The notes below the pieces were generated by a model that was not told the origin of the DNA, searched no databases, and saw only the letters and a program-made list of their open reading frames with translations. A stretch of 60,561 nt of DNA, filler included. It is 10 parts of 10 records of this genome, joined end to end, with 100 filler letters (N's around TTAATTAATTAA, not from the genome) between each part and the next. Parts side by side here need not be neighbours in the genome. Positions count along the whole stretch, not along the records: positions 53,188 to 60,561 come from SRR31147125_310961; 9 more parts are not named here. One strand, 5' to 3'. A program made the translations under genes and the position numbers. Shown in pieces: positions 12,937 to 60,561 of the stretch. Position 1 is the first letter of the stretch. Every line of letters starts with the position of its first letter.

Positions 12937-13036
12937 NNNNNNNNNNNNNNNNNNNNNNNNNNNNNNNNNNNNNNNNNNNNTTAATTAATTAANNNNNNNN
13001 NNNNNNNNNNNNNNNNNNNNNNNNNNNNNNNNNNNN

Positions 13037-14434
13037 TTTTTTGCACTGCGGGGCGCTCTTGCGGATGGCCACGACTTTGTGGCCGCGGCGATTGACAAAG
13101 GCGCCCGGGCCGTGTTTGTGGAGCAGGATGTGCCCCTGCCGGACAATATCGCAGGCATCCTTGTGGCGGATACCCGCAAAGCCATGGCCCTGGCGGCCAT
13201 CAGCTTTTACGACAACCCTGTTGCCGATATGACCCTGATCGGGGTGACGGGGACCAACGGCAAGACGACGGTCTGCTACCAGCTTGAGGCGGTTTTTCAG
13301 GCGGCTGGCCGGAAGCCGGCCGTGCTCGGGACGGTCAACTACCGCTGTGGCAAAAAAACATATCCCGCTCCCAATACCACGCCGGAATCCGCTGACCTTA
13401 TCCGTATCCTCGCTGAATTCCGGGACGCGGGCGCGGACACGGTTATCATGGAGGTTTCGTCTCACGGCCTGGATCAGCACCGTATCGATGGCCTGTTTTT
13501 CGATGTCGGCGTTTTTACCAATCTGTCATCGGAACATCTCGACTACCATGGTGATATGGAATCCTATTTTGGTGTAAAAAAACGCTTTTTCAGCGAATTT
13601 CTCAAGCCGGAGACGGGGATGGCCGTGGTCAATGTTGACGACCCTTTTGGCCAGCGCCTTGCCCGGCAACTGAAACGGGTCTGGCGTTGCAGCCGTTCTT
13701 CCGAAGCGGACATCTATCTTGGTGAGATGAAGACCGCATTTACAGGGACCGATTGTTTCATCTATGGCCCCCGGGGTGAATTGCATCTTACGTCCAGCAT
13801 GTTCGGCTCATTCAATATTTCGAACCTGATGGTCACGGCCGCCGCTGCTATGGCGGCAGGAATTGAGCTTCCTCTGATTGAACAAGGCTTGGCCGGAGCA
13901 CCCCAGGTACCCGGTCGTTTGGAGCCGGTGGAGAACAACTGCGGCGCCTTTATTCTGGTGGACTACGCCCATACGGCCGACGCCTTGAAGAACGTCCTTA
14001 GTGCCTTGAAGGAGCTTTGTCCGCCCCGCCTGATCACGCTTTTCGGCTGCGGCGGCGACCGGGATCGCGGCAAACGCCCGGAAATGGGAGCGGTTGCGGC
14101 GCGCCTGGCGGACATTGTCATCCTTACCTCCGACAATCCCCGCGGCGAGGACCCCGGGGCCATCCTCGAAGAGATACGGGCGGGGATTGAACCTTGCTCC
14201 ATGCCCGAGATTTCCCGGGCCGACGGGCCGATGGTAGGGAAAAAAGGAGTTACCGCCATTGGCGACCGGCGTGAAGCCATCCGTTATGCGGTTTCTCTGC
14301 TGGTCCCTGGAGATGTCCTGCTGGTTGCGGGCAAAGGGCACGAGGACTACCAGATTATCGGTGACAGGCGTGTGGCTTTTAAAGACAGGGACGAAATCAT
14401 CCTGGCTCTGCGCGGACGGGAGGCCCACCAGTGA
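13037..14434 (+). CDS. murE: UDP-N-acetylmuramoyl-dipeptide--DAP ligase (5' truncated)
   Basis: GVTGTNGKTT, MEVSSH, VDYAHT, DNPR (meso-DAP specificity) and AGKGHE. Confidence 0.96.
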   Translation, partial: FFALRGALADGHDFVAAAIDKGARAVFVEQDVPLPDNIAGILVADTRKAMALAAISFYDNPVADMTLIGVTGTNGKTTVCYQLEAVFQAAGRKPAVLGTVNYRCGKKTYPAPNTTPESADLIRILAEFRDAGADTVIMEVSSHGLDQHRIDGLFFDVGVFTNLSSEHLDYHGDMESYFGVKKRFFSEFLKPETGMAVVNVDDPFGQRLARQLKRVWRCSRSSEADIYLGEMKTAFTGTDCFIYGPRGELHLTSSMFGSFNISNLMVTAAAAMAAGIELPLIEQGLAGAPQVPGRLEPVENNCGAFILVDYAHTADALKNVLSALKELCPPRLITLFGCGGDRDRGKRPEMGAVAARLADIVILTSDNPRGEDPGAILEEIRAGIEPCSMPEISRADGPMVGKKGVTAIGDRREAIRYAVSLLVPGDVLLVAGKGHEDYQIIGDRRVAFKDRDEIILALRGREAHQ

Positions 14435-15827
14435 AAATTTTCGACATTCAGAAGATCGCTCAGATTGTCCGGGGCAAGCTCCATCGGGGAGAAGAGAAGG
14501 TGGCGGTCAGCGGTTATTCGGTGGACAGTCGGACCATCCGCAGCGGGGATCTGTTTATTCCCTTGCGCGGGGGAAATTTCGACGGTCACGACTTTCTCCT
14601 TGAAGCCGTGCAAAAAGGGGCGGCGGCATGCCTTTCCGAAGATCTTTGCTCCGGCCTGCCGGTTCCGGTTGTCAGGGTGGAGGATACGCTGACGGCCCTG
14701 GGTGATTTGGCCGGATCCACCCGGGCGCAATTTGGGGGCCGGTAGTGGCCGTGACCGGATCGAGCGGCAAAACCACTACCAAGGAGATGCTGGCGGCGAT
14801 TCTTTCCCTGACGGGACCCGGCCTTAAAAGCCAGGGGAATTTCAACAATCTGATAGGGTTGCCCCTGACCCTTTTGAAATTGGAAGAGAATCAGAAGTGG
14901 ATGGTGCTCGAAATGGGTACGAACCAGCGCGGAGAAATAACCCGGCTGACAGCTATCGCCGATCCTGATGTCGGCGTTATCACCAATGTCGGTCCCAGCC
15001 ACCTGGAAGGGCTCCATGGTCTCGATGGTGTGGCGCGGGCCAAAGGGGAACTATTTGCTGCTCTGAAAAAGGATTCCTTTGCCGTTATCAATGCCGACGA
15101 TCCCCGGGTTCTCCAACTTCCGGTGGCCAACGGGGTGCAGCGGGTGCTCTACGGTTTGTCGTCGGATGCCGAGATTCGCGCCGAAGATGTGACGGTTCTT
15201 GGGAAAAGCGTCGCATTTAATCTGATCCTCCCGGGGGGTGAATATTCCGTCCAGCTGCCGATCTGCGGACAGCACAATGTGTCCAACGCACTGGCTGCTG
15301 CTGCCGCTGCCGTCTGCCTGAACGTTGCGGGCGATCTCATCGTGCAGGGGCTGGAAAGTTTTATCCGTCTTCCGGGCCGCATGGAGGTCTTCACCTTTGG
15401 TTCCGGCATTTTGCTTTTGGATGACACCTACAATGCCAACCCTCTGTCCATGAAATGCGCTCTGACCGTTCTCGCAGAGATGGAGAGCGAAGGGCGGCGG
15501 ATTGCCGTGCTGGGGGATATGTTGGAACTGGGCGAGCAGTCGGAGGAGCTTCACCGCGAGGTCGGAGAAGCGGCTGCCGGATTGAGTGACTTTCTGGTTC
15601 TGGTCGGCGATCGGGCCAGGGATATCGGCTACGGGGCGCAAAATTCCGGGATGGATCCGGACCGGATCCGGACCTTCTCCGATCATCTCGAGGCGGCTGT
15701 TTTCCTGCGGGAAATGCTGCAGCCGGGAGACCGGGTTCTGCTCAAAGGTTCGCGCGGAATGAAAATGGAAAAGATTCGAGCTCATCTGGAAAAAATGGAG
15801 AGCGGAGCGCCCGGCGAAGGCTCCTGA
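14431..15827 (+). CDS. murF: UDP-N-acetylmuramoyl-tripeptide--D-Ala-D-Ala ligase (apparent frameshift near 14735-14745)
   Basis: SVDSRTI and GNFDGHDF in the first frame; AVTGSSGKTTTKEM, DDTYNANP, LGDMLELG and LKGSRG in the second; shift at a G5 run. Confidence 0.93.
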
Positions 15828-15836
15828 GAGGATACT

Positions 15837-16912
15837 GTGCTTTATCATCTTTTGTACCCGCTGCATACAGAGTTTTCCGGTTTTTATGTATTCCGGTACA
15901 TAACCTTTCGGGCGATCTATGCAACGATTACGGCCCTGGTCATTTCTTTTATTATCGGGCCCTGGTTGATATCCAAGTTGTCCAGTCTTCAGCTTGGGGA
16001 GTCCATACGGAAACTTGGCCCGGAGTCGCATCTGAAAAAAGCGGGTACTCCCACCATGGGGGGGACCCTCATTCTCCTGGCCGTTGTCATACCGACCCTT
16101 TTGTGGGTGGATTTGAGCAATATTTATGTCTGGATCACACTTTTGACCACCGTTGGGTTCGGGGTTGTCGGTTTTGTAGACGATTGGCGAAAAATCAAAC
16201 ATGAAGACAGTGACGGATTATCGGCAGGCGTGAAAATAATCTGGTTGATGGGCATTGCTCTTGTCGCCGGCCTGATTCTTTTTACCTATCCGCCATTTGA
16301 GACGACCCTGGTGTTCCCTTTCTTCAAAAACCTGAGGCCTGAACTGGGACTTTTTTTATTCCCTTTTCCATTTTCGTGATCGTTGGTGCGGGCAATGCCG
16401 TCAACCTCACCGACGGACTCGACGGACTGGCCATCGGTCCCACGATCATTGCCTCAGGGACGTATCTCCTTTTCGCCTATCTGGCCGGGAATGCCAAGCT
16501 GGCGGGCTATTTACAGATCAGCAACGTTCAGGGAGCGGGGGAGCTGGCCATCTTCTGCGGAGCGATGATCGGCGCGGGACTGGGGTTTCTCTGGTTCAAC
16601 ACCTACCCCGCCCAGGTTTTCATGGGGGATGTCGGGAGCCTGGCTCTCGGCGGCGCTCTCGGGACGGTAGCAGTGATAACCAAGCATGAACTCGTGCTTG
16701 TGATTGTCGGCGGGATCTTCGTTCTTGAGACCCTTTCGGTTATTTTTCAGGTGGCCTCCTATCGCCTGTTGGGAAAAAGGATTTTCAGGATGGCGCCCAT
16801 TCACCATCATTTTGAGCTCAAAGGCTGGCCGGAGCCGAAAATTATCGTTCGTTTCTGGATTATCAGCATTATTCTGGCCCTGGTGGCCCTGTCCACCTTG
16901 AAGCTGAGGTAA
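15837..16912 (+). CDS. mraY: Phospho-N-acetylmuramoyl-pentapeptide transferase (apparent frameshift near 16350-16376)
   Basis: [35 protein letters not shown] and MAPIHHHFE; shift in a T-rich run. Confidence 0.95.
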
Positions 16913-18171: not shown

Positions 18172-18397
18172 NNNNNNNNNNNNNNNNNNNNNNNNNNNNN
18201 NNNNNNNNNNNNNNNTTAATTAATTAANNNNNNNNNNNNNNNNNNNNNNNNNNNNNNNNNNNNNNNNNNNNCAGGTGGCCTGACATGGCCGTTATATGAA
18301 TTAACGCTTTGCTGTTGAGTAATGTTTATTCATACTTTGGTTGTGGTAGGTGCCTACCATGGCCGTTACTTCAAGTCATTAGTTATGGAGGGTTCAA

Positions 18398-47837: not shown

Positions 47838-49742
47838 TTAGGGTGTGTACCAGATGGGGGATGTATACGCTCTTTCCTGTATGGTGGCAGAATAGTCCTT
47901 GGGGTGATCAACACCCAGGGCTACGGCATCATACAATGAATGCCGCGGGGTGGGGATCTGCAGGACCCGGACATAGTAGAAGGCTGACACCTTGGGATCA
48001 AAATCAGGGTCTGTCCAGACCGTGGCAAGCTGGGCATCGCCAATGGTGTCTTCCCAGGTGGCGTTCTTAAGATTTACCGTATTCCCCACCGGTTTGACTT
48101 TTCCGTATTTGCCCACCTTTCGGTTGTCCGAGAGGGCCACGTTATAAATTTTCTCCTTGGGAAACCCCTTACCATCCACCCAGCCCTTGATCACCTGGAC
48201 ACGATCCAGGTTGGCATGGTTGGGGTCTTTGACCGCCTGGATGAGAAACTGGGGGGCTTTGCCTTTGGGGGCACGGGTTAAATCACCGCCCATGGGCACG
48301 CCTTTTTCATAACCGATCCGGGCCAGACCTGATGCATGGGCGTCTGGTTCTTCAAAATCCCAGCCCCCGAAAAACCGTACCCGAAGCCGAGTGCCTGTGG
48401 TGGCATAGGTTTCTTTGCGTTTGAATGCGTCAAAAATGGCTTCACGGGTGTTTTCTTCCGCCCAGACCGCAGCCAGGCCCGCCGCCCCCATGTCCATGCC
48501 AAAGCTTTGGGGCGGAACAACTACTTTTTTGGGATCTATGGTATTTTCAGGGGTGGAATCCAGGGCCATCTTGCCCCAGAAATTGTCCTCTTCAGCAGAG
48601 GCCAGGCCGGTATGGGAATCTGTGGAGCCGATCATGCCGAATTTATAGGGGTTGGCGCCGATCCGCTTTTCAATGGCAAGCCCCCGCATCAGCCCTGTCC
48701 GCGTGTAGTCGCCTGCTTTGGCTGCGTGCTCTTCATGTTGTTCTAAAAATTTTTTGTCTTCTTCACTGAGTTTCTGGATCAGGGCATCCCCGAACAGGCA
48801 TAATTTTTTGTTGTCTCCGGCTTCGATATAATGGTCATAGGTTTCATAATCGGCAAATTCGTCCGTGGGAGAGAGCATGGGGTGGGTTTCGGAGTCCCCC
48901 TTGATCTGGGTGACTTCCACCACTGTTTCCCAGCGCATCCTGGATTCGGCATAGGCCTTTGAAATGGGCTTGCCGTCACTGTCCGCCACCGGGAACATCA
49001 ATCCCTTGGAAATATTCTGGTTGTGGGGGATGGCCACGAAATTGGCCCCGGTGCTTTTGTTTGTCTCGCCCAGCCATTTCCAAAGGTCCTCGGGTTTGGG
49101 GCTGTCCAGTGCCGTGTACGGAATAAATTTTTCCCCGGTTGCCTTGCCTTCCCGCATGAACACCACCCTGTGGAGGTTGGCGCCGTCCGGCGTTGAACTC
49201 CATTCCCACCCTAGAAAGGTGGTGAATCTGCCCGGATCGTTGTGGCGTTCGGCCGCATCCATGATTTCGCCCCACATGGTCTGGCCCACCTCCGGAGAAA
49301 TCAGATCCGGTTCCGGTTCTCCCTGATTGACCTGACGGATAAGATCTCCGAACACCTTGTGAACTTCTCCCTGTTCAAACCATTTGGCATATTTTTTACC
49401 TGTGGGCGTCCCCGCAACCACGGGGTCCCCATTGATCAGGGCCGGAATCACCCCCATATACTCCCCGTGATCCGCCACCACCAGAAAATCAAGGGGGGTG
49501 TTGATCTGGATTTTGGCCCGGTGAAAGGGGTGGACAACCGGTTCGCCCTTGGCATACCTATAGGCGGTATCCGGGTCTGCTGTCCTGTTCTCCAAAAGAA
49601 AGGCATCCGGTGAATAGGATGTGTGGAGATGGGTGTCCCCGAAGAACACCTCCGTGTTTCTCACCTGCCCTGCCTGGGCCGGCAGGCAGAAGGCAGATAC
49701 GGCAGCCGCTATTGCAGCAAATCGGATTAAATAAAAGAACAT
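47838..49742 (-). CDS. Secreted DUF3604 family protein (PHP-like metallohydrolase fold)
   Basis: Signal peptide, FFGDTHLHTSYSPDA, DFLVVADH, NLHRVV, IPHN, GSTDSH and IQERAYTSPIWYTP. Confidence 0.92.
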   Translation of the reverse strand: MFFYLIRFAAIAAAVSAFCLPAQAGQVRNTEVFFGDTHLHTSYSPDAFLLENRTADPDTAYRYAKGEPVVHPFHRAKIQINTPLDFLVVADHGEYMGVIPALINGDPVVAGTPTGKKYAKWFEQGEVHKVFGDLIRQVNQGEPEPDLISPEVGQTMWGEIMDAAERHNDPGRFTTFLGWEWSSTPDGANLHRVVFMREGKATGEKFIPYTALDSPKPEDLWKWLGETNKSTGANFVAIPHNQNISKGLMFPVADSDGKPISKAYAESRMRWETVVEVTQIKGDSETHPMLSPTDEFADYETYDHYIEAGDNKKLCLFGDALIQKLSEEDKKFLEQHEEHAAKAGDYTRTGLMRGLAIEKRIGANPYKFGMIGSTDSHTGLASAEEDNFWGKMALDSTPENTIDPKKVVVPPQSFGMDMGAAGLAAVWAEENTREAIFDAFKRKETYATTGTRLRVRFFGGWDFEEPDAHASGLARIGYEKGVPMGGDLTRAPKGKAPQFLIQAVKDPNHANLDRVQVIKGWVDGKGFPKEKIYNVALSDNRKVGKYGKVKPVGNTVNLKNATWEDTIGDAQLATVWTDPDFDPKVSAFYYVRVLQIPTPRHSLYDAVALGVDHPKDYSATIQERAYTSPIWYTP

Positions 49743-49787
49743 GGTGCCTCCTAATTATTTTAATTTATAGAATGCATGCATGTGACA

Positions 49788-51729
49788 TTAGGGGGTATAC
49801 CAGATCGGAGACGTATACGCCCTTTCCTGTGTGGTCATGGGGATCTCATCCGACATTTTTACATTGTATCGCTTGGCATCGTAGGCCGTCCACCTCGGGG
49901 TGGGGATCTCAATGACCCGGGCATAGTAGAACGCCTTGAGGGACGAATCAAAGTCCGGGTCCTGCCATACCGCGATCAGCTCGGGATCGCCGATTGTATT
50001 GGTCCAGGTGGCGTTTTTCACATCCACGGTGTTTCCGACCCCAGGCAGCTTGCCATTTTTTCCCATTTCCCGTTTATCTGCATCTCCCCAGGCCACGTCA
50101 TAGACTTTTTCATGGGTCTTATTGTCCTTGTCCAGCCAGCCTTTGACAATCTGGATCCGGTCCAGATTTCCGCTGTAAGGATCTTTCAGAGCCGCCACCA
50201 GAAATGAAGGGGTTTTCCCTTGGGTGCTCGGGTCAGATCGCCGCCCATGGAGATGCCCTTGCTGTATCCCACCCGGCCGGGAGCGCGTTTTAAGGCATCG
50301 GTGGCCTCAAACTCCCATCCGCCGAAAAACCAGACCGTCATCCTGGGGCCTGTGCTGGCGTATACCTCTTTTCGCTTCATGGCATCAAAAATGGCTTCTC
50401 TTGTGTTTTCCGTGGCCCAGACCGCGGCATACCCGGAGGATACCTGCTCCCAGCCAAACCAGCGGATGTCGCCTATTTCTCCGATCAGTTTTTTCCACCG
50501 GTCTTTTTCAGGTTCTTTGCCGCTGTGTTTGCCGAAAAAGTTTTCCTCTTCAGCTGTGGCAAGGGAGGTGTGGGAGTCGGTTGACCCCACCATGCCGAAT
50601 TTGTAAGGATTGGTGCCAAGCTTTTCCTCAAGCATCAGGCCTTTTTTCAAAGCCTCCCTGGCATATTCATACTGGAGCATTTCATTTTTTTTGGGAACAG
50701 GGCCAAGATTGGCCTTATCCCAGATTTCATAACCGGCAAATTCGTCATTGGGTGACAGAAAGGGGTGGGTCTCGCCGTCACCTTTCATCTGGGTGACTTC
50801 GTACAGGGGCTCCCAGCGGATACGGGTTTTGGCATAGTCTTTGGTAATCGGTTTTTGGGTGGCCGGGTTTACTTCCGGGAACATGATCCCGTTGGAGAGG
50901 TTCCCGTTGTGGGCCAGGGCCAGGACCTGGCCGCCGGTTTTATCCTCGAATGCCGCCATCCATTTCCACAGGTCTTCAGGGTTCATGCTGTCTTCTGCCG
51001 TAAAGGGAAGCATCTGTTCTGCCTCATCTGCGCCGCAGCGGTACAGCACATTTCTGTGCAGATTGTCTCCCCCCGGGGTGGGGGTCCACTCGTACCCGAT
51101 AATGGTGGTGAATCTGCCCGGATCATTATATTTTTCAGCCGCCTCAAGATATTCGTTCCAGATGTTTTTAATAAAGGTCTCATCGGTCAGGACTTTTGGG
51201 ACATTGCCTTCAGTAAATTGCTGGATAACATCCATGGTGGCCATGAGCGCGGTTTCACCGCCTTTGGCGATCCTGTCGTGCCAGTCTTTGACCGTAGGGT
51301 CCCGCAGCAGGTTGGGATTCCCGTTGATGATTTCCTTCATGGCGCCCATGGCATCGGAATGGTCGGCAATGACCAGAAAATCCAGGGGTCGGGACAGCTT
51401 GAGGCGCTCCCCGTGGGAGGCTGTCACCTCTTCGCCCCTGGCGAACCTGTAGGCCGCCTCCGGGTCCAGGGTGACGCCGAAGGCCCTGGCATCAAGGGAT
51501 AGGGCCGTGTGCAGGTGGGTGTCGCCCCAGAGCACCTTTGTGGGGTAGTTCTGGCCTGCGTATGGGGAGTAGGGCTTTTTTTAAACGATTTTCTTATGCT
51601 TTCCTTATCACTCCCGATAATGCTGACATCGTCACAGATGCCGGTCCCGGCGACAAGCAAAGAGAAAATGAATGCAGTGATGCCCATTATCATCCTGAAA
51701 CGCCAGGCAGTGATTTTTTGATCATTCAT
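49788..51729 (-). CDS. Second DUF3604 paralog (apparent frameshifts near 51575 and 50215)
   Basis: Leader 51729-51575, core LWGDTHLHT...GSTDSH, tail TQERAYTSPIWYTP; both shifts at homopolymer runs. Confidence 0.88.
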
Positions 51730-51829: not shown

Positions 51830-52657
51830 TTATAAATTAAAGATAATACCGATAGCCGGACCGTGGGTAACGGTATCATAGGCAAAATAACCGGGGGTGT
51901 TGAAATTTCCTGAATCAAAATCCACCCACAGGGCATTATACTGAATGTCCAGGGCTATCATCTCGGTGACCCTGTAGGAAATGCCGACAGCCAGCTTGGA
52001 TGTGAAATCCGATTCCAGGCCGAATCCACCGATATCCGCCCGGAGCATTAGTCTCCAGTCTTCGGTAAGATCATAGAAGGCCCGGGCGCCGACAACGGCG
52101 TCCACCCAGTTTTCGTCCCTCTGCCGGGAAATCTCGCCGATCAGCCCCGGGCGTTTCACTGCATGGATTTTGTTTTTCCACCTGCGGAGGCCGGCAAAAA
52201 CATCAAGATCCCAACCATTGACCCTGAACCGCTTGAACCCGTGCAGTTCAAAGACCGTCTGCTTAACACCGGCGGCAAATGCGCCAGTGGCCGGGCGGGG
52301 CAGATCGTCCTCCATTTCAAGATCCATGAAGCTGAAATCGAAAATTATCCCGTAGCTGTTCCGAAGAATCGCCTCAATGTGGATCATGCCCCCCTTTTCA
52401 AGGTTGTCGAAAATATCGCTTGGGGTAATATCCACGTCGGCGCCTGTGATATTCAGGTTGGCATTGTTGGAAACGTGTAAAGAGGTATCTCCCTGGATAT
52501 AAGGGGCCATCATGTATGGCTCTATTAAAAACTGCCAGTCTTTTTTTGTTTCTCCGGTAAGGCCGGATACCGGCAGCAGGGTCCCCAATACCGCGAACAG
52601 CAGAGATACCAGTATCCTTTTTAGTGCAGGCCTGCACATTTGGTATTCACCGATCAT
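51830..52657 (-). CDS. Outer-membrane beta-barrel protein, function unknown
   Basis: Signal peptide, WQFLIEPY, WVDAVVGAR, RADIGGFG and terminal HGPAIGIIFNL; RBS before ATG 52657. Confidence 0.75.
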   Translation of the reverse strand: MIGEYQMCRPALKRILVSLLFAVLGTLLPVSGLTGETKKDWQFLIEPYMMAPYIQGDTSLHVSNNANLNITGADVDITPSDIFDNLEKGGMIHIEAILRNSYGIIFDFSFMDLEMEDDLPRPATGAFAAGVKQTVFELHGFKRFRVNGWDLDVFAGLRRWKNKIHAVKRPGLIGEISRQRDENWVDAVVGARAFYDLTEDWRLMLRADIGGFGLESDFTSKLAVGISYRVTEMIALDIQYNALWVDFDSGNFNTPGYFAYDTVTHGPAIGIIFNL

Positions 52658-52933
52658 TATGATCCCCCTTGGGAGTGAGGCTTTATACGTTGATGTGTTT
52701 GGGCTTTTTTTGTGTTTATCGCTGTCAGTTAGAGGCCGCCGGCCCATGATTCCCTATTCATTGCACAAATCAATTACTTGTGTCAAGTGTGGGAATCATT
52801 CATTGATGCGAAAAGCGGGTAAGTCATGGGGTGGAAAAAGATGGTTTTTTTGAAACCGCTTTTGGTGAATCCCAAAAATCTTTCCTGCTTTTCATCTAAG
52901 GGCAAACAAGCCCGTTTATGTTTTGAAGTAAGC

Positions 52934-53087
52934 TCAGTCCGTTAGAGTGCCATCCAGAATGCCATGTGGCTCCAGATGAACCATGACATCAATGATCCGG
53001 CTGTTTTTTTCAATGAGCACCTCCTTGACCGTTTCTGAAATATCATGGCCCTGGGCCACGGTGAGGCTGCCGTCCACCTCCAGGTGG
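52934..53087 (-). CDS. Cation diffusion facilitator C-terminal (ZT_dimer) fragment
   Basis: HLEVDGSLTVAQGHDISETVK...DVMVHLEP, read from the minus strand (not in the ORF track). Confidence 0.85.
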
Positions 53088-53372
53088 NNNNNNNNNNNNN
53101 NNNNNNNNNNNNNNNNNNNNNNNNNNNNNNNTTAATTAATTAANNNNNNNNNNNNNNNNNNNNNNNNNNNNNNNNNNNNNNNNNNNNCCACACTCTCCCT
53201 ACCCAACTTTCATTGCAGCACAGACAAACACGGACAAACACTGACTTGCACGGACGGACACCGTGCTCCTTGTTCGGCTTGGCCGTTTTGTCTTAAATAA
53301 TTACGTAGTTGGTCGACTAATTCTATGGACTTGCGCTAAAATGGGTTTAGACGAATTGGAGGACTGTAGACT

Positions 53373-56047
53373 TTGAAGCAACTGCATCGAAGCCTGGGAT
53401 TGTTCTCGGTTATCGGCATTTCTATCAGCGCTATGCTGGGAAGCGGCATTTTCGTGCTGCCCGGTCTGGCTGCGGCAAAAACCGGCCCGTCTGTCTGGCT
53501 CGCCTATGTCATCGCCGGGGTGTGCGTTCTTCCCGCCGCCCTTTCCAAAGCGGAGCTGGCAACGGCAATGCCCACCTCCGGAGGCTCGTATGTGTACATA
53601 GATCGCGCCTTCGGCCCCCTCATGGGCACTATCTCCGGCCTGGGCCTGTGGCTCTCCTTGCTTCTCAAAGGTTCCTTCGCGCTTGTGGGATTCGGCGCAT
53701 ACTTGAGTGTTTTCGCAGATTTTCCATTGAAGTTCGTCGCCCTTGCCATGCTTCTTGTCATCGTCGCCCTTAACATCGTGGGCGTAAAGAACATTGGAAG
53801 AATTCAGATAGCCCTGGTCCTATTCGCCCTCGGTAGCCTGGCGGTCCTTGTGGCCATCGGGCTGACGACGATGGACGAAAGCGTCTTTCAAGGTGAACAA
53901 CTGGAACATGGCTTCGGCGGTCTGATAGAGGCCGCCGGGTTCGTTTTCATCTCTTACGCAGGTGTTACCAAAGCAGCGGCAGTGGCGGAAGAAGTTCACA
54001 ATCCCGAGCGCAATCTTCCAATAGGAATTCTGCTCTCCTTGTTCCTCGTCGCTATTGTCTACGGCCTCGTCGTATTCGTAATGACCGGCAATATCTCCGA
54101 GGAAGTATTCGTTGGAACGGAAATGCCGGTCTTTCTTCTGGCAAAAAAGCTCGGGGGACCAATCGTAGGTATCATGGGCGCCGTTCTCGGGGTTTTGACC
54201 ATGACATCCATGGCCAATGCCGGACTGCTCGCCTCATCCAGATTCCCCTTCGCCATGAGCCGTGACAAAGTCCTTCCGACCATATTCAAAAAGGTGCACT
54301 CGAGATTTCTCACACCTATCATCGCTATTTTCGCAACCGGAATCGTCATGGCAGCGGTCATTGTGCTGCTGGACGTCGAGCGGTTGGCGAAACTCGCAAG
54401 CGCGTTCGTTATTGCCATCTTCGTTGTGGAGAACCTATGCGTGATTGTGCTCAGAGAAAGCTCGGCCCAATGGTACAAGCCCATCTACCGCTCTCCCCTG
54501 TACCCCATAACCCAGATATTCGGCATTACCTCGGGCCTGGGCCTGTTGTCCATGATGGGTATCGAAGCGGTGATCGGTCTGGCGGCGGTCTTCGTCCCCG
54601 GTGCCCTTCTCTTCTTCTTCTACAGCAGTAAACGCACCACCAGAATCGGAGAGATGAAAAAATAGGTCCTCGCAGGGATCTCGCCGTGGCCACCAACGGC
54701 GGCGACCGGCCGGGCAGCCCCCATGAGACTGACCAGGCGTCCGTAATCGTATCTCTTTTTGGAAACGAACGCTCACCTGAGACAATCGTCGATATGGGGA
54801 TTGCCCTGGCAGACAACCGCCCCCTCGTTGTCCAACATATCTCTGAAATCCAGGATGATTACTCCGGAGAGTCGGAACTGGAGGAGGAACCTCGCCTGCG
54901 GTCTTTGAATCGCCGATTGAAGGCCATGGCCAGCGACAAATCGGTATGCATGGATTTCATGGCCATAGCTACTCGAGATGCGGCCAAGACAGTCCATATG
55001 GAAAGCGATACCCTCGGAGCCAGGTTTCTGGTCCTTGCATGGGGCGGCAGAACCCACCTTGGTCGCCTGTTCAGAAACCCCTACGCGTGGCTGGTGAGTC
55101 ATATCAGGTGCAATCTGGCACTGTTCAAGGACGCCGGCGTTCGATACGTAAAGAAGGTCCTGGTCTACGCCGACCCGGGACCTCACGATCTGCTGGTGGT
55201 ACAAACCGCCGATCAGCTCGCCAAGCTTTTCAATGCCACGCTTACTTTCGTTCGCTTCGTTCCCGATTCCGTGTCCAAGCCCGTATTCCAGTCCCAGGTG
55301 GACTACGTCGATGAGCTGCGCCACCTTTGCAAGGCACCCACTAAAATAAGAATTCTGCGTGGTAGCAGCGTTTTCGACGCCCTCGCGCAAGAATCCTCAT
55401 ACCACGACCTTCTGGTTCTGGGTGCGCCGCCGGAAAAAGGGGTTCGCGGCCTACTCTTGACCAATACCGAAGATCGAATCACCGAAGCAGCGGCCTGCTC
55501 GGTTCTGAGATTGCGAACCCCGCGCGCCAAGACACACGCAGCTTTCGATGGATCCCAAAAGCGCCAAGAAAGAACCTGCTCTCCTGTTGAAAAATACCTG
55601 CTTCCAAACCGCGTCGAAATAGGCCTTGACCTAAAAAAGAAAGAGAATCTGTTTCGCCATTTCGCCTGCTCCTTGGAGCCGGTGCTTCCCGGAGTCTCCC
55701 AAGGGGAAATAGAAAAGGCCCTTTGGGACAGGGAAAGAACCCAAAATACGTCAGTGGGACATGGCCTGGCGTTGCCCCACGCCACCATCGATCAATCGGA
55801 GCAAACCATCCTGGCGGTCTACATGACAAACGAACCGATAGACTACGGGGCGGCGGACGGCAAAGCTGTGGATGTGTTCTGGGTTACAGTCGGCCCCCCC
55901 AGCGCCAGGCAGACACACCTGGAGTTGCTCGCCGATGTTGCCCGGTTGGTGCTCGAAACAGATCTTCTGACAAAGCTGCGCCGAGCGAAAAGCAGTGACC
56001 GCGCCCTGGAGGCCGTGCTCTCGAGCGCCAGGGACAGCTCCAAATAG
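53373..56047 (+). CDS. APC-family permease fused to two USP-like domains and a PTS EIIA domain (about 891 aa; apparent frameshift near 54660)
   Basis: MLGSGIFVLPG and AEEVHNPERN permease. Adding one A to the A6 run at 54657-54662 reads EMKKIGPRRDLAVATNGG into ORF 54686. USP-like HDLLVLGA...AACSVL; EIIA motif RERTQNTSVGHGLALPHA. Confidence 0.8.
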
Positions 56048-56057
56048 GACTTCGAAG

Positions 56058-57449
56058 ATGGCAAAAAAGAGAGTAAAAACAATCGTATCCGCCCTCCACG
56101 ACAGCTTCCAGGCGGTTCACGGATCCCAGGTAATGTCATCCGACTTTCTGCCTGCCGTCGAAGCCGCGGTGGCCGCAGGTGTAAAGCACTTCGAGGTGGG
56201 GGGAAGATACCAGTCGCTTCACTTCACAGACAACGAAGACCCGTTTGTCCAAATGGACGAGTTCAAAAAGACGGTGGGATCTTCAGCTACTTTACAGAGC
56301 ACGGCTCGCTGTACCAACGTGATAGGCTCCCACTCCCAAACCAGCGACGTGGTTGAACTTCACGCCCGGTTGATGAAAAAGCACGGAGTGTCCACGGTAA
56401 GAAACCTGGATCCTCTCAACGACGCCGACAATTTCGCCTACAGCGCAAAGTGCTTGCACCGGGCCGGTCTCAAGCACGAAGTCTCCATTTCCATGATGTC
56501 CGTGCCCTCAACCTCCCCTCATGTTGCTCCCAAAGAGGTATACGGCTCCGCATTTTACGAAATTCTCTTGAGGAGAATTGTCGACGAAGACATTCCTTTC
56601 GACTCCATTGCCTTCATGGACGCTTTCGGAACCTCCCAACCCAAGGTAATAAACGAGACAATCAAGAAGGCTCGAAAGATGCTTCCCTACGGCACCCCAA
56701 TCACCTTCCAGACCAACAATACGGCCGGCGTATCCACCCTCTCCTATCTCGCCGCACTGGATGGAGGGGCCGATACGATTGTCCTTTGCCTGGGTCCAGC
56801 ACCAGGGGGAACCTCCCGGCCGGATATCTCCACCATGTCCTATGCGCTGGAGGATACGGAGTTCAGCCTGGATATGGACATTGAGAAGCTTCGCGAAGCG
56901 GAACGGAGTTTCACAGAATGTGCCGAGCGCTCGCTAAAAACCGCGAACCCGAGGGGAAACGGGGCACCGGCAGGAATGCCCCCAGGGGAAGTCTCCCCGG
57001 GGAATCCGGTGATGCTCGAAAGCGACGTACTCAACAAATACGCCTATCTTCTCAAAGCCATGCGGGAGGTAGTCGAATACGGCGGGTACGCCACCTCCCT
57101 GGCGCCCATCTCTCAATATTATTTCAGACAAGCTTTGAACAACACCAAGTTCGGCCCCTGGGAGAAAATCGACGAAGACTACGGCAAACTGGTGCTTGGC
57201 TTCTTTGGAAGAACTCCCGTCAAACCCGATGCCACCATCGTGACCATGGCGGCCCAGCAACTCAAGCTTCGCCCCCCAAACCTCAGTATCTTGGAACGCA
57301 ACGATTCCGATCCGGAAAAAGGCCTGAATGCCGCAAAGAGGAAACTACAAGCCGCTGGATTGGAACAAACAGAAGAAAATGCGTTCATTGTTGCTACTGC
57401 TCCACAATCGGGCATTGCATTCCTCAAGAAAAAGAGGGGCAAAAAATAA
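56058..57449 (+). CDS. Pyruvate carboxyltransferase (PycB/OadA-like) homolog, 463 aa, degenerate active site, no biotinyl domain
   Basis: Collinear with Campylobacter-type PycB (DFLPAVEAA, LHARLMKKHG, GLKHEV, GGTSRPDI, AMREVVEYGG, YGKLVLGFFGRTPVKPD, TEENAFI, GIAFLK), but catalytic motifs are altered. Confidence 0.88.
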   Translation: MAKKRVKTIVSALHDSFQAVHGSQVMSSDFLPAVEAAVAAGVKHFEVGGRYQSLHFTDNEDPFVQMDEFKKTVGSSATLQSTARCTNVIGSHSQTSDVVELHARLMKKHGVSTVRNLDPLNDADNFAYSAKCLHRAGLKHEVSISMMSVPSTSPHVAPKEVYGSAFYEILLRRIVDEDIPFDSIAFMDAFGTSQPKVINETIKKARKMLPYGTPITFQTNNTAGVSTLSYLAALDGGADTIVLCLGPAPGGTSRPDISTMSYALEDTEFSLDMDIEKLREAERSFTECAERSLKTANPRGNGAPAGMPPGEVSPGNPVMLESDVLNKYAYLLKAMREVVEYGGYATSLAPISQYYFRQALNNTKFGPWEKIDEDYGKLVLGFFGRTPVKPDATIVTMAAQQLKLRPPNLSILERNDSDPEKGLNAAKRKLQAAGLEQTEENAFIVATAPQSGIAFLKKKRGKK

Positions 57450-57526
57450 TGTTGGCAGGCAACGAGCTTCCTCCATACAATAAAGAGCTGAAACTCACTA
57501 ATTCAAACCCAGCATAGGAGACACTC

Positions 57527-58546
57527 ATGAAGTGTTTGCGCGCCTTTCGGTCCTTAGCCGCTACGCTCCTTCTTTTGTTTTCTATCGGGCTTTGCGCCTG
57601 CGATGATGATTCAGGCTCCTCCGGTTCCGATGGAGACTCAGATGGGGACACTGACTCGGACACGGACGGCGACAGCGACTCGGATGGGGATACTGACACA
57701 GACGCGGACAGCGACGGAGATACGGACACGGAGTGGGATACGGAGACCGTGTGCAACAGGTGGAGCGCCGATCGGGCTGATCTCTCGGAGGGTACCTGGA
57801 GCGGCAATGTCTCCTCCTGTTATGCGGGGGACATATCGAGCGACGGTAGGGAGAACGCCCTCAAGCTGGTCAATCTTTACCGGTGGCTTTGCGACTTGCC
57901 CGCGGTCTCCCACGACTCCACGTCGAACCACTACGCTCAGGAGTGCTCCCTCATGATGACCGCCAACGACGACCTGGACCATACGCCACCGACCACCTGG
58001 GATTGCTACAGCGCCGACGGTGCGACCGGCGCGGGGAGCAGCAACATCGCCTCGACACCTGGAGTGGACGGAGTGGATCTCTACATGGTGGACCCGGGCA
58101 ACCCCACCACCATCGGTCACCGCAGATGGATCCTGTCCAACAGTCTTGGTCCCATCGGTCTGGGATCCACCGACTCATACTCCTGCATGAGAGTAATCGG
58201 AGGCAGCGGAAACGCCGGCGCAGAATGGGTCGCCTGGCCTCCTCCCGGCCCTGTTCCCCTTGAAGCCTTCACCCCCGACGGCCTGTCCTGGACCTCTTTG
58301 AACGAAACCGGCTGGACCATCCAAAGCGACTCCATCGACCTTTCCTCAGCCCAAGTAACCATAACCTCCGCAGGAGACCCTAGGCCTGTTACCGTAACAA
58401 GCCTCCTGGGAGGCTACGGCAGCGCCCACGCCATCTCCATGACCCCTCAAGGCTGGGTCGCGCAGAATGGCGAGACCTACCACGTGGAGGTGACTGGAGT
58501 ATCCCCTGCAATCGACTACCACGTGCACATCGTGGATTGTCCCTGA
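57527..58546 (+). CDS. CAP/SCP-domain lipoprotein with Asp-Ser/Asp-Thr linker
   Basis: Lipobox LCAC, (DSDGDTD)n, VNLYRWLCDL, LDHTPP and GHRRWIL. Confidence 0.85.
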   Translation: MKCLRAFRSLAATLLLLFSIGLCACDDDSGSSGSDGDSDGDTDSDTDGDSDSDGDTDTDADSDGDTDTEWDTETVCNRWSADRADLSEGTWSGNVSSCYAGDISSDGRENALKLVNLYRWLCDLPAVSHDSTSNHYAQECSLMMTANDDLDHTPPTTWDCYSADGATGAGSSNIASTPGVDGVDLYMVDPGNPTTIGHRRWILSNSLGPIGLGSTDSYSCMRVIGGSGNAGAEWVAWPPPGPVPLEAFTPDGLSWTSLNETGWTIQSDSIDLSSAQVTITSAGDPRPVTVTSLLGGYGSAHAISMTPQGWVAQNGETYHVEVTGVSPAIDYHVHIVDCP

Positions 58547-58585
58547 TACAGGTGCTTTCGAATAGAGAGCAGCAAGGAGTATGCA

Positions 58586-59962
58586 ATGATCGCAAAGCCA
58601 ACCTCTAATAGTAAGTGCTCCAGGCAAAGCAGACCAAAGACCGGATACAAATGGGGCTTACTGCTACTGGCTCTCTTGATTGTTATTCCCGCGTGGGCGA
58701 ATGCTGCAACTCATTATGCGCATCCTTCAGACACAGGCACCGGGACCATCAACGACATCTACTACGCAGTATCCAATGCAATAGCCGGGGATGTTATAGA
58801 ATGCTCCGCAGGATCCTATACCCTTGGCTCGGGTGCCTTGTTTGTGGACAAAGACATCAGCATTCAAGGAGCGCCCGGCACTACACCTGGAAGTGTCATC
58901 TTGGATTGCAACGGCGGCATCTGCCTAGATTACACCGGAACAACACCAGCTGCTTCCGTCGCCGATATTATGATAACAAACGGCTCTGAAGGGATCTGGG
59001 TAGAATGGGGATCACTGACAATCCGCAGAACGCTATTCCAGAACAACACCACGGGCCTCATGGTACAAAGGCATGGAAGCGTCGCTCATGTGGAATGGAG
59101 CACGTTCGAAAACTGCGGAGTTGGAGCATACGCTCTGGAGCACGGTTCGGCTAATATTGTGGAGAGTCTGTTCGCCAACAACATCAGCGGAGCAAAATTC
59201 AAGCGAACAGCAACCAGTGTAATTGATTCGTGTGAATTCGACGGCAATACCTTCGGCACATATCTAAAGGCCGAAAACGGCATCAACGAATTGCTCGTCC
59301 ATCACTCTGCATTCCTCAATAATTACAATGGTGTAACACTGGAATCAACAACGGGAATAGCCAATGTCGCGATTCGGGACAATACCTTTTTTTCCAATAC
59401 CAGCTATGGCATCCGAATAACTGGACCGGATAACTCTACCGTTTTCAAAAACTATTTCGAAGACAATTATGGTGGAGTGGGTGTCTATGGTGGAGGAAGC
59501 TCAGTGGTGTCAAACAATCTCATCTTAAGCAGCACAAAAATAGGCATGTACGGTGGTGGCTCAAATGCTGTTTTCTCATACAACACCGTTTCCGGTGGCG
59601 ATATCGGTTTCTATAGCTCCGTTGCCGATGTGTCACTGGTTGCCAACAACATTTTCCACGACAACAGCTCTTTTGGAATCAGAGCGGAGTACAGCGCGTG
59701 TACTACTATCGGCAACAATAACGCGTATGACAACGGAACAGAAAGAGAAATTCTATGTACCGCTTGCACATGCCCCGTCATAGGGTACAGAGCGCGAACC
59801 CTCAGTGTAGATCCTGACTTCATTGGAACAACAGACTATCGTCTCTCTCCTACCTCAGCACTCAATGGAACAGCCGATCCGACGGTTCACGCAGTTCCTG
59901 AGGACATTTTGGGTGTAGCCAGGGGCGCCTACGGTGTTGAACCGGGCTGCTACGAGATTTGA
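58586..59962 (+). CDS. Secreted right-handed parallel beta-helix repeat protein
   Basis: Signal peptide ending ANA; repeated F.NN..GI motifs; tail VDPDFI..DYRLSPTS. Confidence 0.8.
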   Translation: MIAKPTSNSKCSRQSRPKTGYKWGLLLLALLIVIPAWANAATHYAHPSDTGTGTINDIYYAVSNAIAGDVIECSAGSYTLGSGALFVDKDISIQGAPGTTPGSVILDCNGGICLDYTGTTPAASVADIMITNGSEGIWVEWGSLTIRRTLFQNNTTGLMVQRHGSVAHVEWSTFENCGVGAYALEHGSANIVESLFANNISGAKFKRTATSVIDSCEFDGNTFGTYLKAENGINELLVHHSAFLNNYNGVTLESTTGIANVAIRDNTFFSNTSYGIRITGPDNSTVFKNYFEDNYGGVGVYGGGSSVVSNNLILSSTKIGMYGGGSNAVFSYNTVSGGDIGFYSSVADVSLVANNIFHDNSSFGIRAEYSACTTIGNNNAYDNGTEREILCTACTCPVIGYRARTLSVDPDFIGTTDYRLSPTSALNGTADPTVHAVPEDILGVARGAYGVEPGCYEI

Positions 59963-60101
59963 GGTCAACGGGGTAAGGTAGCTTGGATCTTTCAAGGAAA
60001 TGAAGGATCGACTGTACGCAATGGTGCAATCCGGAAAGCTTCGATGGAAGAGAATCTGTTGGCTAAAGGCGCTATTGAGCCGGAAGGCCCGGGGTTGTGA
60101 C

Positions 60102-60458
60102 CTAGTCGAAGGACAGTTCGGCGGAGACCCAGATGCCGTCGGTTTCTTCGATTTCCACTGAGTAATTGTGTGTGTAGTCCGCCCAGTAGGTGGCGATTTT
60201 CAGCTTGGCAACGGCCTTGGCTCTGCCGGTCCAGATCTGGTTGCCGTCTTCGTACACTGTGACGATGGAGGTGGGTTTGCTCAGTTCGCTGCTGGGCTCG
60301 ATGGTGAGATACAGATTCGAAACACCATCGGCCGAAGCGCTGGCGGATACCTCGGAGTATGGGGCGGCGGTTACTTCCAGGATCTCGACGGCTGCGAGAA
60401 CCGTGGCGGAGAAGAGGAAAATGGCTGCAAGTGTGGATACTACGATGCTCTTTTTCAT
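60102..60458 (-). CDS. Small secreted hypothetical protein
   Basis: RBS AAGGAG, then MKKSIVVSTLAAIFLFSATVLA signal peptide. Confidence 0.7.
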   Translation of the reverse strand: MKKSIVVSTLAAIFLFSATVLAAVEILEVTAAPYSEVSASASADGVSNLYLTIEPSSELSKPTSIVTVYEDGNQIWTGRAKAVAKLKIATYWADYTHNYSVEIEETDGIWVSAELSFD

Positions 60459-60561
60459 GATCGCTCCTTTGTACGAATGCTTTAACGCATTCATTTTTTT
60501 GTGGGTAAGCGCGCTACGAGAGATTCATTTGCGAGGAGTGTGGGATTTCTTGCAGTCGGAT

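Follow-up and report, generated by a model that had tools for sequence, protein, structure and literature searches.

A probably non-catalytic pseudo-carboxyltransferase of PycB-like ancestry, encoded behind an APC-USP-EIIA transporter gene

We analysed a stretch of 60,561 nucleotides of DNA (hereafter the window), consisting of ten parts of one genome joined end to end with 100 filler letters between each part and the next, and describe here an open reading frame (ORF) named P0001 in the part taken from SRR31147125_310961 (positions 53,188 to 60,561). P0001 is related to the carboxyltransferase (CT) domains of PycB and OadA, carries replacements at active-site positions and directly follows a gene for an APC-USP-EIIA transporter. 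With a probability of about 0.6, we regard P0001 as a maintained, non-catalytic pseudo-carboxyltransferase that acts by binding. All coordinates count along the window and are collected in Table 1.

The product of the ORF is laid out as a TIM barrel (approximately residues 1-290) followed by the helical PYC_OADA funnel (residues 306-460) and has no biotinyl domain. Pfam searches returned PYC_OADA (PF02436) with an E-value of 4.7e-13 and 49.8 bits against a gathering score of 27, and HMGL-like (PF00682) with 18.4 bits, which is under its gathering score of 29. The TAG stop codon of the upstream gene (56045-56047) and the ATG of P0001 are separated by 10 nt, and the following ORF begins at 57527, 77 nt past the P0001 stop codon. 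The longest ORFs in the other frames across this stretch comprise 199, 144 and 108 amino acids. GC contents at the first, second and third codon position (0.56/0.43/0.63) resemble those of the neighbouring genes; by this measure P0001 is a native coding gene. When three canonical proteins were compared with the window by tblastn, they matched only the P0001 ORF, up to canonical residue 457 (position 57428), and neither tblastn nor Pfam revealed a biotinyl remnant in the ORF or anywhere in the window. P0001 ends where the linker to the biotinyl domain starts in canonical relatives. A first-pass annotation of this DNA had described an intact 463-amino-acid ORF with its own ribosome-binding site, 10 nt after the transporter stop and 77 nt before the next gene, into which no biotinyl domain fits. 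Start, stop, AGGA sequence and both spacings were recovered, and the tblastn result agrees with the missing domain.

The CT domain of Lactococcus lactis pyruvate carboxylase coordinates its cation through two His, an Asp (with an Arg) and a carboxylysine, and in the active domain a metal-bound water contacts pyruvate (PMC9581989). Exchange of the catalytic Thr in the Rhizobium etli enzyme (T882A) abolishes CT activity, as does removal of the biotin carboxyl carrier protein (BCCP) domain (PMC5895798), and Arg548 together with Gln552 permits pyruvate binding (PMC10653868). The corresponding Asp/carboxylated Lys/His-x-His metal site is incomplete in P0001. Only Asp15 is left, and three of the four side-chain ligands are gone. 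As for the RDxxQ substrate contacts, the first Arg is His14 in P0001 and Glu in P0123, an ortholog introduced below; Gln18 and Arg84 are kept in both proteins. An Arg84 equivalent is found in none of ten other strongly degenerate representatives, and its counterpart in R. etli pyruvate carboxylase, Arg621, is presumably a pyruvate contact. Furthermore, MPGG (MPGGA) reads MPPG (MPPGE) in P0001, and VTPVSQ reads LAPISQ. Compared with intact relatives, the changes in FRDGFQ, FKDASG, HTHE/D, MPGG and VTP are all substitutions. The Ala missing from the GGGA loop would, judged from our alignment and PMC5059739, be the residue affected by the A59T mutation of 5S and the A49T mutation of MfPC. The motif positions given in the first-pass annotation were exact (L13 at 56094, F186 at 56613, Q218 at 56709 and L348 at 57099), and its view that the equivalents of Asp549, Gln552 and Arg621 are kept was borne out by the alignment, in which they correspond to Asp15, Gln18 and Arg84. 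Since P0001 lacks three of the four side-chain ligands of the metal as well as the catalytic Thr, one substrate Arg, the biotinyl domain and part of the biotin-pocket loop, it is very unlikely to carry out biotin-dependent carboxyl transfer or to decarboxylate oxaloacetate in the canonical way.

Table 1. Features of P0001 and its upstream and downstream flanks, in window coordinates.
Feature	Coordinates	Strand	Remarks
APC-family permease + two USP-like domains + PtsN-type EIIA	53373..56047	+	in two frames in the window; from domain searches
Transporter frame break, run ATGAAAAAATAG	54654..54665	+	one extra A would give ...GEMKKIGPRRDL... as in relatives
AGGA, ribosome-binding-like	56046..56049	+	8 nt before P0001 ATG, overlaps upstream stop; read from sequence
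Pseudo-carboxyltransferase ORF (putative), P0001	56058..57449	+	intact, 463 aa, ATG 56058, TAA 57447-57449
LHDSFQ, replaces FRDGFQ	56094..56111	+	substrate Arg replaced by His14; metal-ligand Asp15 and Gln18 retained; LEDSFQ in P0123
GGRY loop, canonical GGGARF	56199..56210	+	two residues missing in P0001 and P0123 only, including biotin-pocket Ala
QSTARC	56298..56315	+	second substrate Arg (Arg84) retained
FMDAFG, replaces FKDASG	56613..56630	+	carboxylated metal-bridging Lys replaced by Met187; FLDPFG in P0123
FQTNN, replaces FHTHE/D	56706..56720	+	both metal-binding His lost (Gln218, Asn220); all five residues identical in P0123
Degenerate lid loop, MPPGEVSPGNPV (canonical MPGGALTANTQM)	56976..57011	+	diverged differently in P0123; low model confidence
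LAP, replaces VTP	57099..57107	+	proton-shuttle Thr replaced by Ala349; Arg in P0123
Promoter-like site TTGGCA, 18 nt, TACAAT	57452..57481	+	10/12 matches; right after P0001 stop, before CAP-domain gene; consensus match only

By sequence comparison, P0001 is an old offshoot of a CT-plus-biotin-carrier family of PycB-like proteins of about 600 amino acids (for instance P0004, P0057 and P0108). These proteins, named 'biotin attachment protein / pyruvate carboxylase subunit B', share with P0001 the barrel and the C-terminal funnel, with 47-51% identity over residues 1-457. They keep FRDGFQ, GGGA, FKDASG, HTHE/D, MPGG, VTP and the biotinyl domain, all of which P0001 has lost or changed. The metagenome-assembled genomes (MAGs) that encode them are labelled Melainabacteria, Planctomycetota, Kiritimatiellia, Poribacteria and Desulfovibrionaceae. 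A word-based protein search returned 1053 proteins with E <= 0.001 among the 8000 candidates scored, and the best 120 of these were all 576-655 amino acids long, 47-50% identical to P0001 and equipped with a biotinyl domain. All six relatives that were retrieved are intact, with FRDGFQ, GGGARFQS, FKDASGT, FHTHE/D, MPGGA and VTPVSQ. The parent family (P0002-P0121) is highly conserved, with a mean identity of 67% among 43 non-redundant members. Its member P0004, the one that was scanned, reached 340.7 bits against the NF006761 cutoff of 402 and stayed under every NCBIfam equivalog cutoff (PycB, OadA, 5S). P0001 lies below all curated cutoffs as well; its best NCBIfam score was 134.3 bits against a cutoff of 734 (NF010644), and the domain model NF006761 gave 122.1 against 402.

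An exhaustive search of 1.84 billion cluster representatives gave 786 with E <= 0.001. When the best 150 of these were compared for the signature of P0001, it was present in a single one, P0123. This protein of 454 amino acids is 43% identical to P0001 and is a singleton encoded on one contig of 3055 bp. Common to both are FQTNN, L.DSFQ, F[ML]D.FG, the two-residue deletion in GGRY and the end point without a biotinyl domain. A word-based search with P0123 found only P0123 itself and active-type proteins at no more than 38% identity, and a search of the ESM Atlas returned active-type CT clusters only. Matches to plasmids by tblastn had at most 26% identity. Species genome contigs, scanned with two peptide patterns built on P0001 and P0123, gave 79 pattern matches and no relative, a scan by which more distant orthologs could be missed. 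Thus, the P0001 lineage is rare, and its two sequences limit what can be said about it.

Maximum-likelihood analysis of 18 proteins placed P0001 and P0123 as sisters inside the active family of about 600 amino acids, with an ultrafast bootstrap of 100 and a Shimodaira-Hasegawa-like approximate likelihood ratio test (SH-aLRT) value of 99. The stem of the pair has a length of 0.86, and the tips measure 0.47 for P0001, 2.11 for P0123 and 0.10-0.47 for the active proteins. A quick tree of 35 proteins agrees with the placement of P0001. Further insight came from 236 columns that are at least 95% conserved among 43 non-redundant active proteins. Both orthologs kept the residue in 85 of these columns; 48 were changed only in P0123, 16 only in P0001 and 61 in both, and 26 were gaps. 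Among these 61, P0001 and P0123 arrived at the same replacement in 29. Ser16, Phe190, Gln218, Asn220, Pro249 and Arg254 belong to the derived residues that they share. The lid loop (residues 311-318) is also changed in both proteins, mostly to different residues. This pattern would be expected if biotin handling were no longer tightly constrained while the surroundings of the former metal site still were. Identity between P0001 and P0123 amounts to 62% at the C-terminal rim of the barrel, whereas the remaining barrel positions reach 40% (Fisher p 0.0018) and the N-terminal rim 38%, so the former active-site face is the part of the barrel that is best conserved between them. P0123 shares the replacements of P0001 and likewise lacks the biotinyl domain, which points to a maintained lineage rather than a decaying duplicate. 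From this indirect evidence we infer that the P0001/P0123 lineage has been kept under selection.

The overall structure appears to have survived these changes. An AlphaFold2 model of P0001, built from an alignment of 40 sequences, had a mean confidence (pLDDT) of 86 and a predicted TM-score (pTM) of 0.88. It comprises eight beta-alpha units and a helical C-terminal domain, with low confidence only at residues 155-157 and 297-314 (pLDDT < 50 at 297-307 and 311-314). Foldseek aligned the model with the 5S subunit 1rqh at a TM-score of 0.87, with OadA 2nx9 at 0.84 and with PycB 5ks8_C at 0.85 (0.82-0.85 across the OadA and PycB chains). The model thus shows that P0001 retains the complete predicted CT fold of barrel and helical funnel.

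The transporter upstream had been annotated in the first pass as an APC-USP-EIIA protein. Its domains are indeed present, although in the window they are distributed over two ORFs, 53373..54665 and 54686..56047. The EIIA domain keeps its His (GHGLALPHAT), and H365 is invariant in the alignment. Relatives of the transporter are single ORFs of 890-904 amino acids, which read through the junction as ...YSRKRT.RRG..GK[IL]G.R.DL..., and the permease, wherever it lies directly upstream in a related locus, is fused in the same frame (73 of 73 loci). Other genes of the window are likewise split into adjacent ORFs in different frames, namely murF (104 + 360 amino acids), mraY (180 + 178) and a DUF3604 gene (449 + 136); together with the transporter, the affected sites are 14431-15827, 15837-16912, 49788-51535 and 54654-54665. 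Because breaks of this kind also occur in murF and mraY, which are essential, an assembly indel of one base in a homopolymer is the likely cause of the transporter break, and the split genes point to assembly errors and not to pseudogenes. Programmed -1 frameshifting at the A6 run of the transporter was weighed as well and set aside, as murF, mraY and the DUF3604 gene show similar splits. The window contains 792 N, and N runs in or beside the mur genes, near 12989-13040 and 18180-18225, appear as X in translations. Among the matches listed by a full-text literature search, none was a paper on a permease/USP/EIIA/PtsN architecture.

The neighbourhood of P0001 and the transporter was compared with related loci. 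A scan of 185,579 species genomes with the USP-EIIA alignment found 78 loci, mostly in MAGs labelled Myxococcota, Polyangia or 'Deltaproteobacteria', plus Planctomycetota. The synteny sample consisted of the 69 loci that reach the end of EIIA with at least 1400 bp downstream, 64 of them with at least 3000 bp. At none of the 69 is a CT-like gene found downstream of the transporter. Searches of all 78 loci by tblastn with P0001, P0123 and P0004 gave one weak and unrelated match, at locus L004 (65 residues, E 0.001, on the other strand and far upstream). Downstream of the three closest transporter orthologs (57-59% identity) lie unrelated genes, in one case for chorismate synthase on the opposite strand, in another for a histidine kinase and in the third an unassigned 157-amino-acid ORF with an M23 peptidase behind it, and none of the other neighbours in the window recurs at related transporter loci. 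The pairing of P0001 with the transporter therefore appears to be lineage-specific, with no sign of a conserved module. The first-pass annotation, which had proposed a sensor module with the transporter, had itself reckoned missing synteny elsewhere as refuting evidence, and this is what the 69 loci reveal. Judged from the spacing, P0001 is probably co-transcribed with the transporter in its own genome. A complex prediction for the USP-EIIA ORF with P0001 scored 0.00 against a mark of 0.34, a result that counts neither for nor against binding.

Other signals around P0001 were inspected. A promoter/terminator scan did not rise above chance, with 4 promoter-like sites in the region compared with 5.0 expected from shuffles, and it found no terminator-like site between the transporter and P0001. 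Rfam searches at gathering scores returned neither a riboswitch nor any other RNA family for the window, and nothing was detected in the leader at 52600-53500 at E-values up to 1, i.e. no riboswitch ahead of the operon. Downstream of P0001, at 57527-59962, two apparently secreted proteins are encoded. The first is a CAP-domain protein with a low-complexity stretch rich in Asp, Ser, Gly and Thr after a signal-like N-terminus, and the second is a right-handed beta-helix protein (NosD-like). On the minus strand at 47838-51535, two DUF3604 genes lie in tandem, the second of which is frame-broken.

How might such a protein work? P0001 would function by binding, without carboxyl transfer. Its remodelled pocket (Asp15, Gln18, Arg84, Asp188, Gln218, Asn220) probably holds a small carboxylate-type ligand, and/or the CT dimer surface may bind a protein partner; the two modes would not exclude each other. 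Binding of pyruvate in the canonical mode is disfavoured by the absence of three of the four side-chain metal ligands. Several points weigh against a non-catalytic binding protein kept under selection. Only two members of the lineage are known, and selection on them is deduced indirectly. The branch leading to P0123 is very long (2.11) and its composition is odd, so that long-branch attraction would be possible from the tree alone; the shared indel and motifs argue against it as the cause of the pairing. Active members of the family typically have a highly conserved barrel rim too, and part of the rim signal may thus be structural. Gln, Asn and Asp could still hold a hard cation, and calling P0001 dead is a deduction from sequence. 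Finally, co-transcription with the transporter is read from spacing only.

The first-pass annotation regarded P0001 as a candidate keto-acid sensor pseudoenzyme. Its pseudoenzyme half is well founded, as P0001 has other residues for the catalytic Lys and Thr, for both His and for the first Arg, retains the fold and has an independent ortholog in P0123; its sensor-module half is not supported. According to that half, P0001 senses pyruvate or oxaloacetate and regulates the adjacent APC-USP-EIIA protein through the cytoplasmic USP/EIIA domains as a dedicated two-gene module. The 10-nt gap and the AGGA of P0001 suggest one transcript with the transporter, no terminator-like site separates the genes and the promoter-like site lies only past P0001. 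Moreover, both orthologs retain Asp15, Gln18 and Arg84, the phosphorylatable His of the EIIA domain is still present, and PtsN-type proteins are reported to bind enzymes of central carbon metabolism, namely pyruvate dehydrogenase in P. putida and SucA in Brucella (PMC13689476). Set against this are the transporter loci, at which no CT-like protein was found and where unrelated genes follow the closest orthologs, and the loss from P0001 of three of the four side-chain ligands for the metal that positions pyruvate. We therefore consider such a module quite doubtful. A variant in which the pocket binds a 2-oxo acid or the transporter substrate without metal and docks onto the EIIA/USP tail, resulting in metabolite-gated transporter control, is a long shot. 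The partner of P0001 might instead be an active CT paralog encoded elsewhere in the genome, with a mixed dimer tuning or scaffolding a pyruvate carboxylase, oxaloacetate decarboxylase or transcarboxylase. Trees nest P0001 inside the active family and the C-terminal funnel is its best family match (Pfam PYC_OADA). CT dimers swap subunits readily, a BCCP-less T882A CT mixing with the active form (PMC5895798), and two-subunit pyruvate carboxylase possibly has only one active CT per dimer (PMC5059739). Enzyme-pseudoenzyme pairs such as PDX1.2 are common (bioRxiv 10.1101/717082). However, no active CT, biotin carboxylase or BCCP gene lies within the window, and a mixed dimer leaves unexplained why the former active-site face stays conserved with new residues; we hold it to be possible but rather unlikely.

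Two further explanations were considered. If the DRE-TIM barrel chemistry had changed, P0001 might still be an enzyme, either independent of metal or with a hard cation on Asp/Gln/Asn, and without biotin. Both orthologs have the same residues at Gln218, Asn220, Ser16, Phe190 and Pro249, and conservation is highest at the barrel rim, which would suit an altered active site; some so-called pseudoenzymes have relocated catalytic residues (PMC10211241). Yet the bridging Lys has become Met or Leu, and the position of the catalytic Thr differs between the orthologs (Ala versus Arg). Besides, no member of this fold is known to work without the Asp/His/His metal site. An enzyme with altered chemistry is accordingly very unlikely in our view. 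The other explanation is a decaying duplicate, i.e. a young pseudogene of a PycB-like gene that is still open by chance. The nearest named full-length relatives all have intact motifs, and the lineage is very rare, with its signature in one of the best 150 of 786 representatives. The assembly of the window also has several frame breaks, but these hit essential genes elsewhere and are hence assembly errors. Decay is at odds with 463 codons that have stayed open at 49% mean identity to the parent family with only three small indels, in a stretch where the other frames reach no more than 199 amino acids, and with an open ortholog at 43% identity that has the same derived residues and end point. 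In addition, the P0001 tip (0.47) falls within the range of active tips, and its codon-position GC is like that of neighbouring genes. Decay thus appears highly improbable, and a maintained pseudo-carboxyltransferase acting by binding is the reading that we prefer.

P0001 and P0123 are not the only CT-like proteins with a damaged active site. Ten further CT cluster representatives lost at least three of the Arg/Lys/His/His/Thr set (P0137, P0138, P0144, P0145, P0156, P0168, P0198, P0209, P0213 and P0257), and P0135 lost only the Lys. In the quick tree, P0135, P0137, P0144, P0145, P0156, P0168, P0198 and P0213 form a clade of their own (SH-aLRT 100). Like P0001, these other degenerate lineages belong to the same fold family, have lost catalytic residues and are mostly short, without a working biotinyl domain. 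Unlike P0001, they carry different replacement residues, constitute separate lineages and lack the Arg84 equivalent where at least three catalytic residues are gone. These sequences suggest that catalysis was lost on several occasions within the CT fold, which may have been put to new use repeatedly in binding or regulation. Two additional finds concern CT-like proteins in other contexts. P0136 (828 amino acids) is a fusion of an N-terminal caspase-like domain, a Cys-rich segment and a CT domain in which another residue stands for the carboxylated Lys (FMDESG). The caspase-like match is to the NCBIfam model 'caspase, EACC1-associated type' (E 1.4e-9, below its cutoff), and P0136 could be a conflict-system protein that uses the CT fold as sensor or effector. 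On the Rhizobium leguminosarum plasmid pRlBT01c (L079:240-9399), a CT-like 'hypothetical protein' 23% identical to P0001 is encoded in a row of genes on one strand, which also specifies two PEP-utilising/PEP-pyruvate-binding proteins, a biotin carrier, a biotin carboxylase, a HAD hydrolase and an acetoacetate-CoA ligase. This row looks like an uncharacterised biotin-dependent carboxylase cluster.

A full-text literature search, covering listings and the beginnings of abstracts, brought up no account of a natural CT of this fold that is catalytically dead yet maintained. P0001 offers a clean example, with the fold intact, the metal site and biotin handling gone and the derived residues recurring in a second member. 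Discovery of a ligand or partner would add a new class of bacterial pseudoenzyme and could show how metabolites at a carbon node are sensed. Were metabolite-gated docking true, it would amount to a new kind of transporter control and the first function for any CT-fold pseudoenzyme; as it stands, the link of P0001 to the transporter is weak.

In summary, P0001 represents a variant within an enzyme family that is already known, as opposed to a new kind of system. Its best match in the PDB, in structure as well as in sequence (residues 12-457 of P0001, E-value 1.5e-23), is the 5S subunit of Propionibacterium shermanii transcarboxylase (1rqb, 1rqh), like P0001 a CT subunit without a biotinyl domain of its own, and the two superimpose at the TM-score given above over approximately 465 columns. 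At 20-21% identity, however, 5S has the full metal site and is served by a separate biotin carrier, 1.3S, whereas P0001 is devoid of the metal ligands and the Thr. OadA and two-subunit PycB (2nx9, 5ks8) have the same pair of domains, an HMGL-like barrel (for which P0001 scores below the gathering score) and PYC_OADA, and gave the best NCBIfam alignments; P0001 differs from them in lacking the catalytic residues and a BCCP or association domain. An engineered R. etli pyruvate carboxylase, deltaBC deltaBCCP T882A, resembles P0001 in having no BCCP domain and an Ala for the catalytic Thr, and still folds, dimerises and mixes with the active CT (PMC5895798). That construct was made in the laboratory and keeps its metal site, whereas P0001 is a natural protein that has also lost the Lys and both His.

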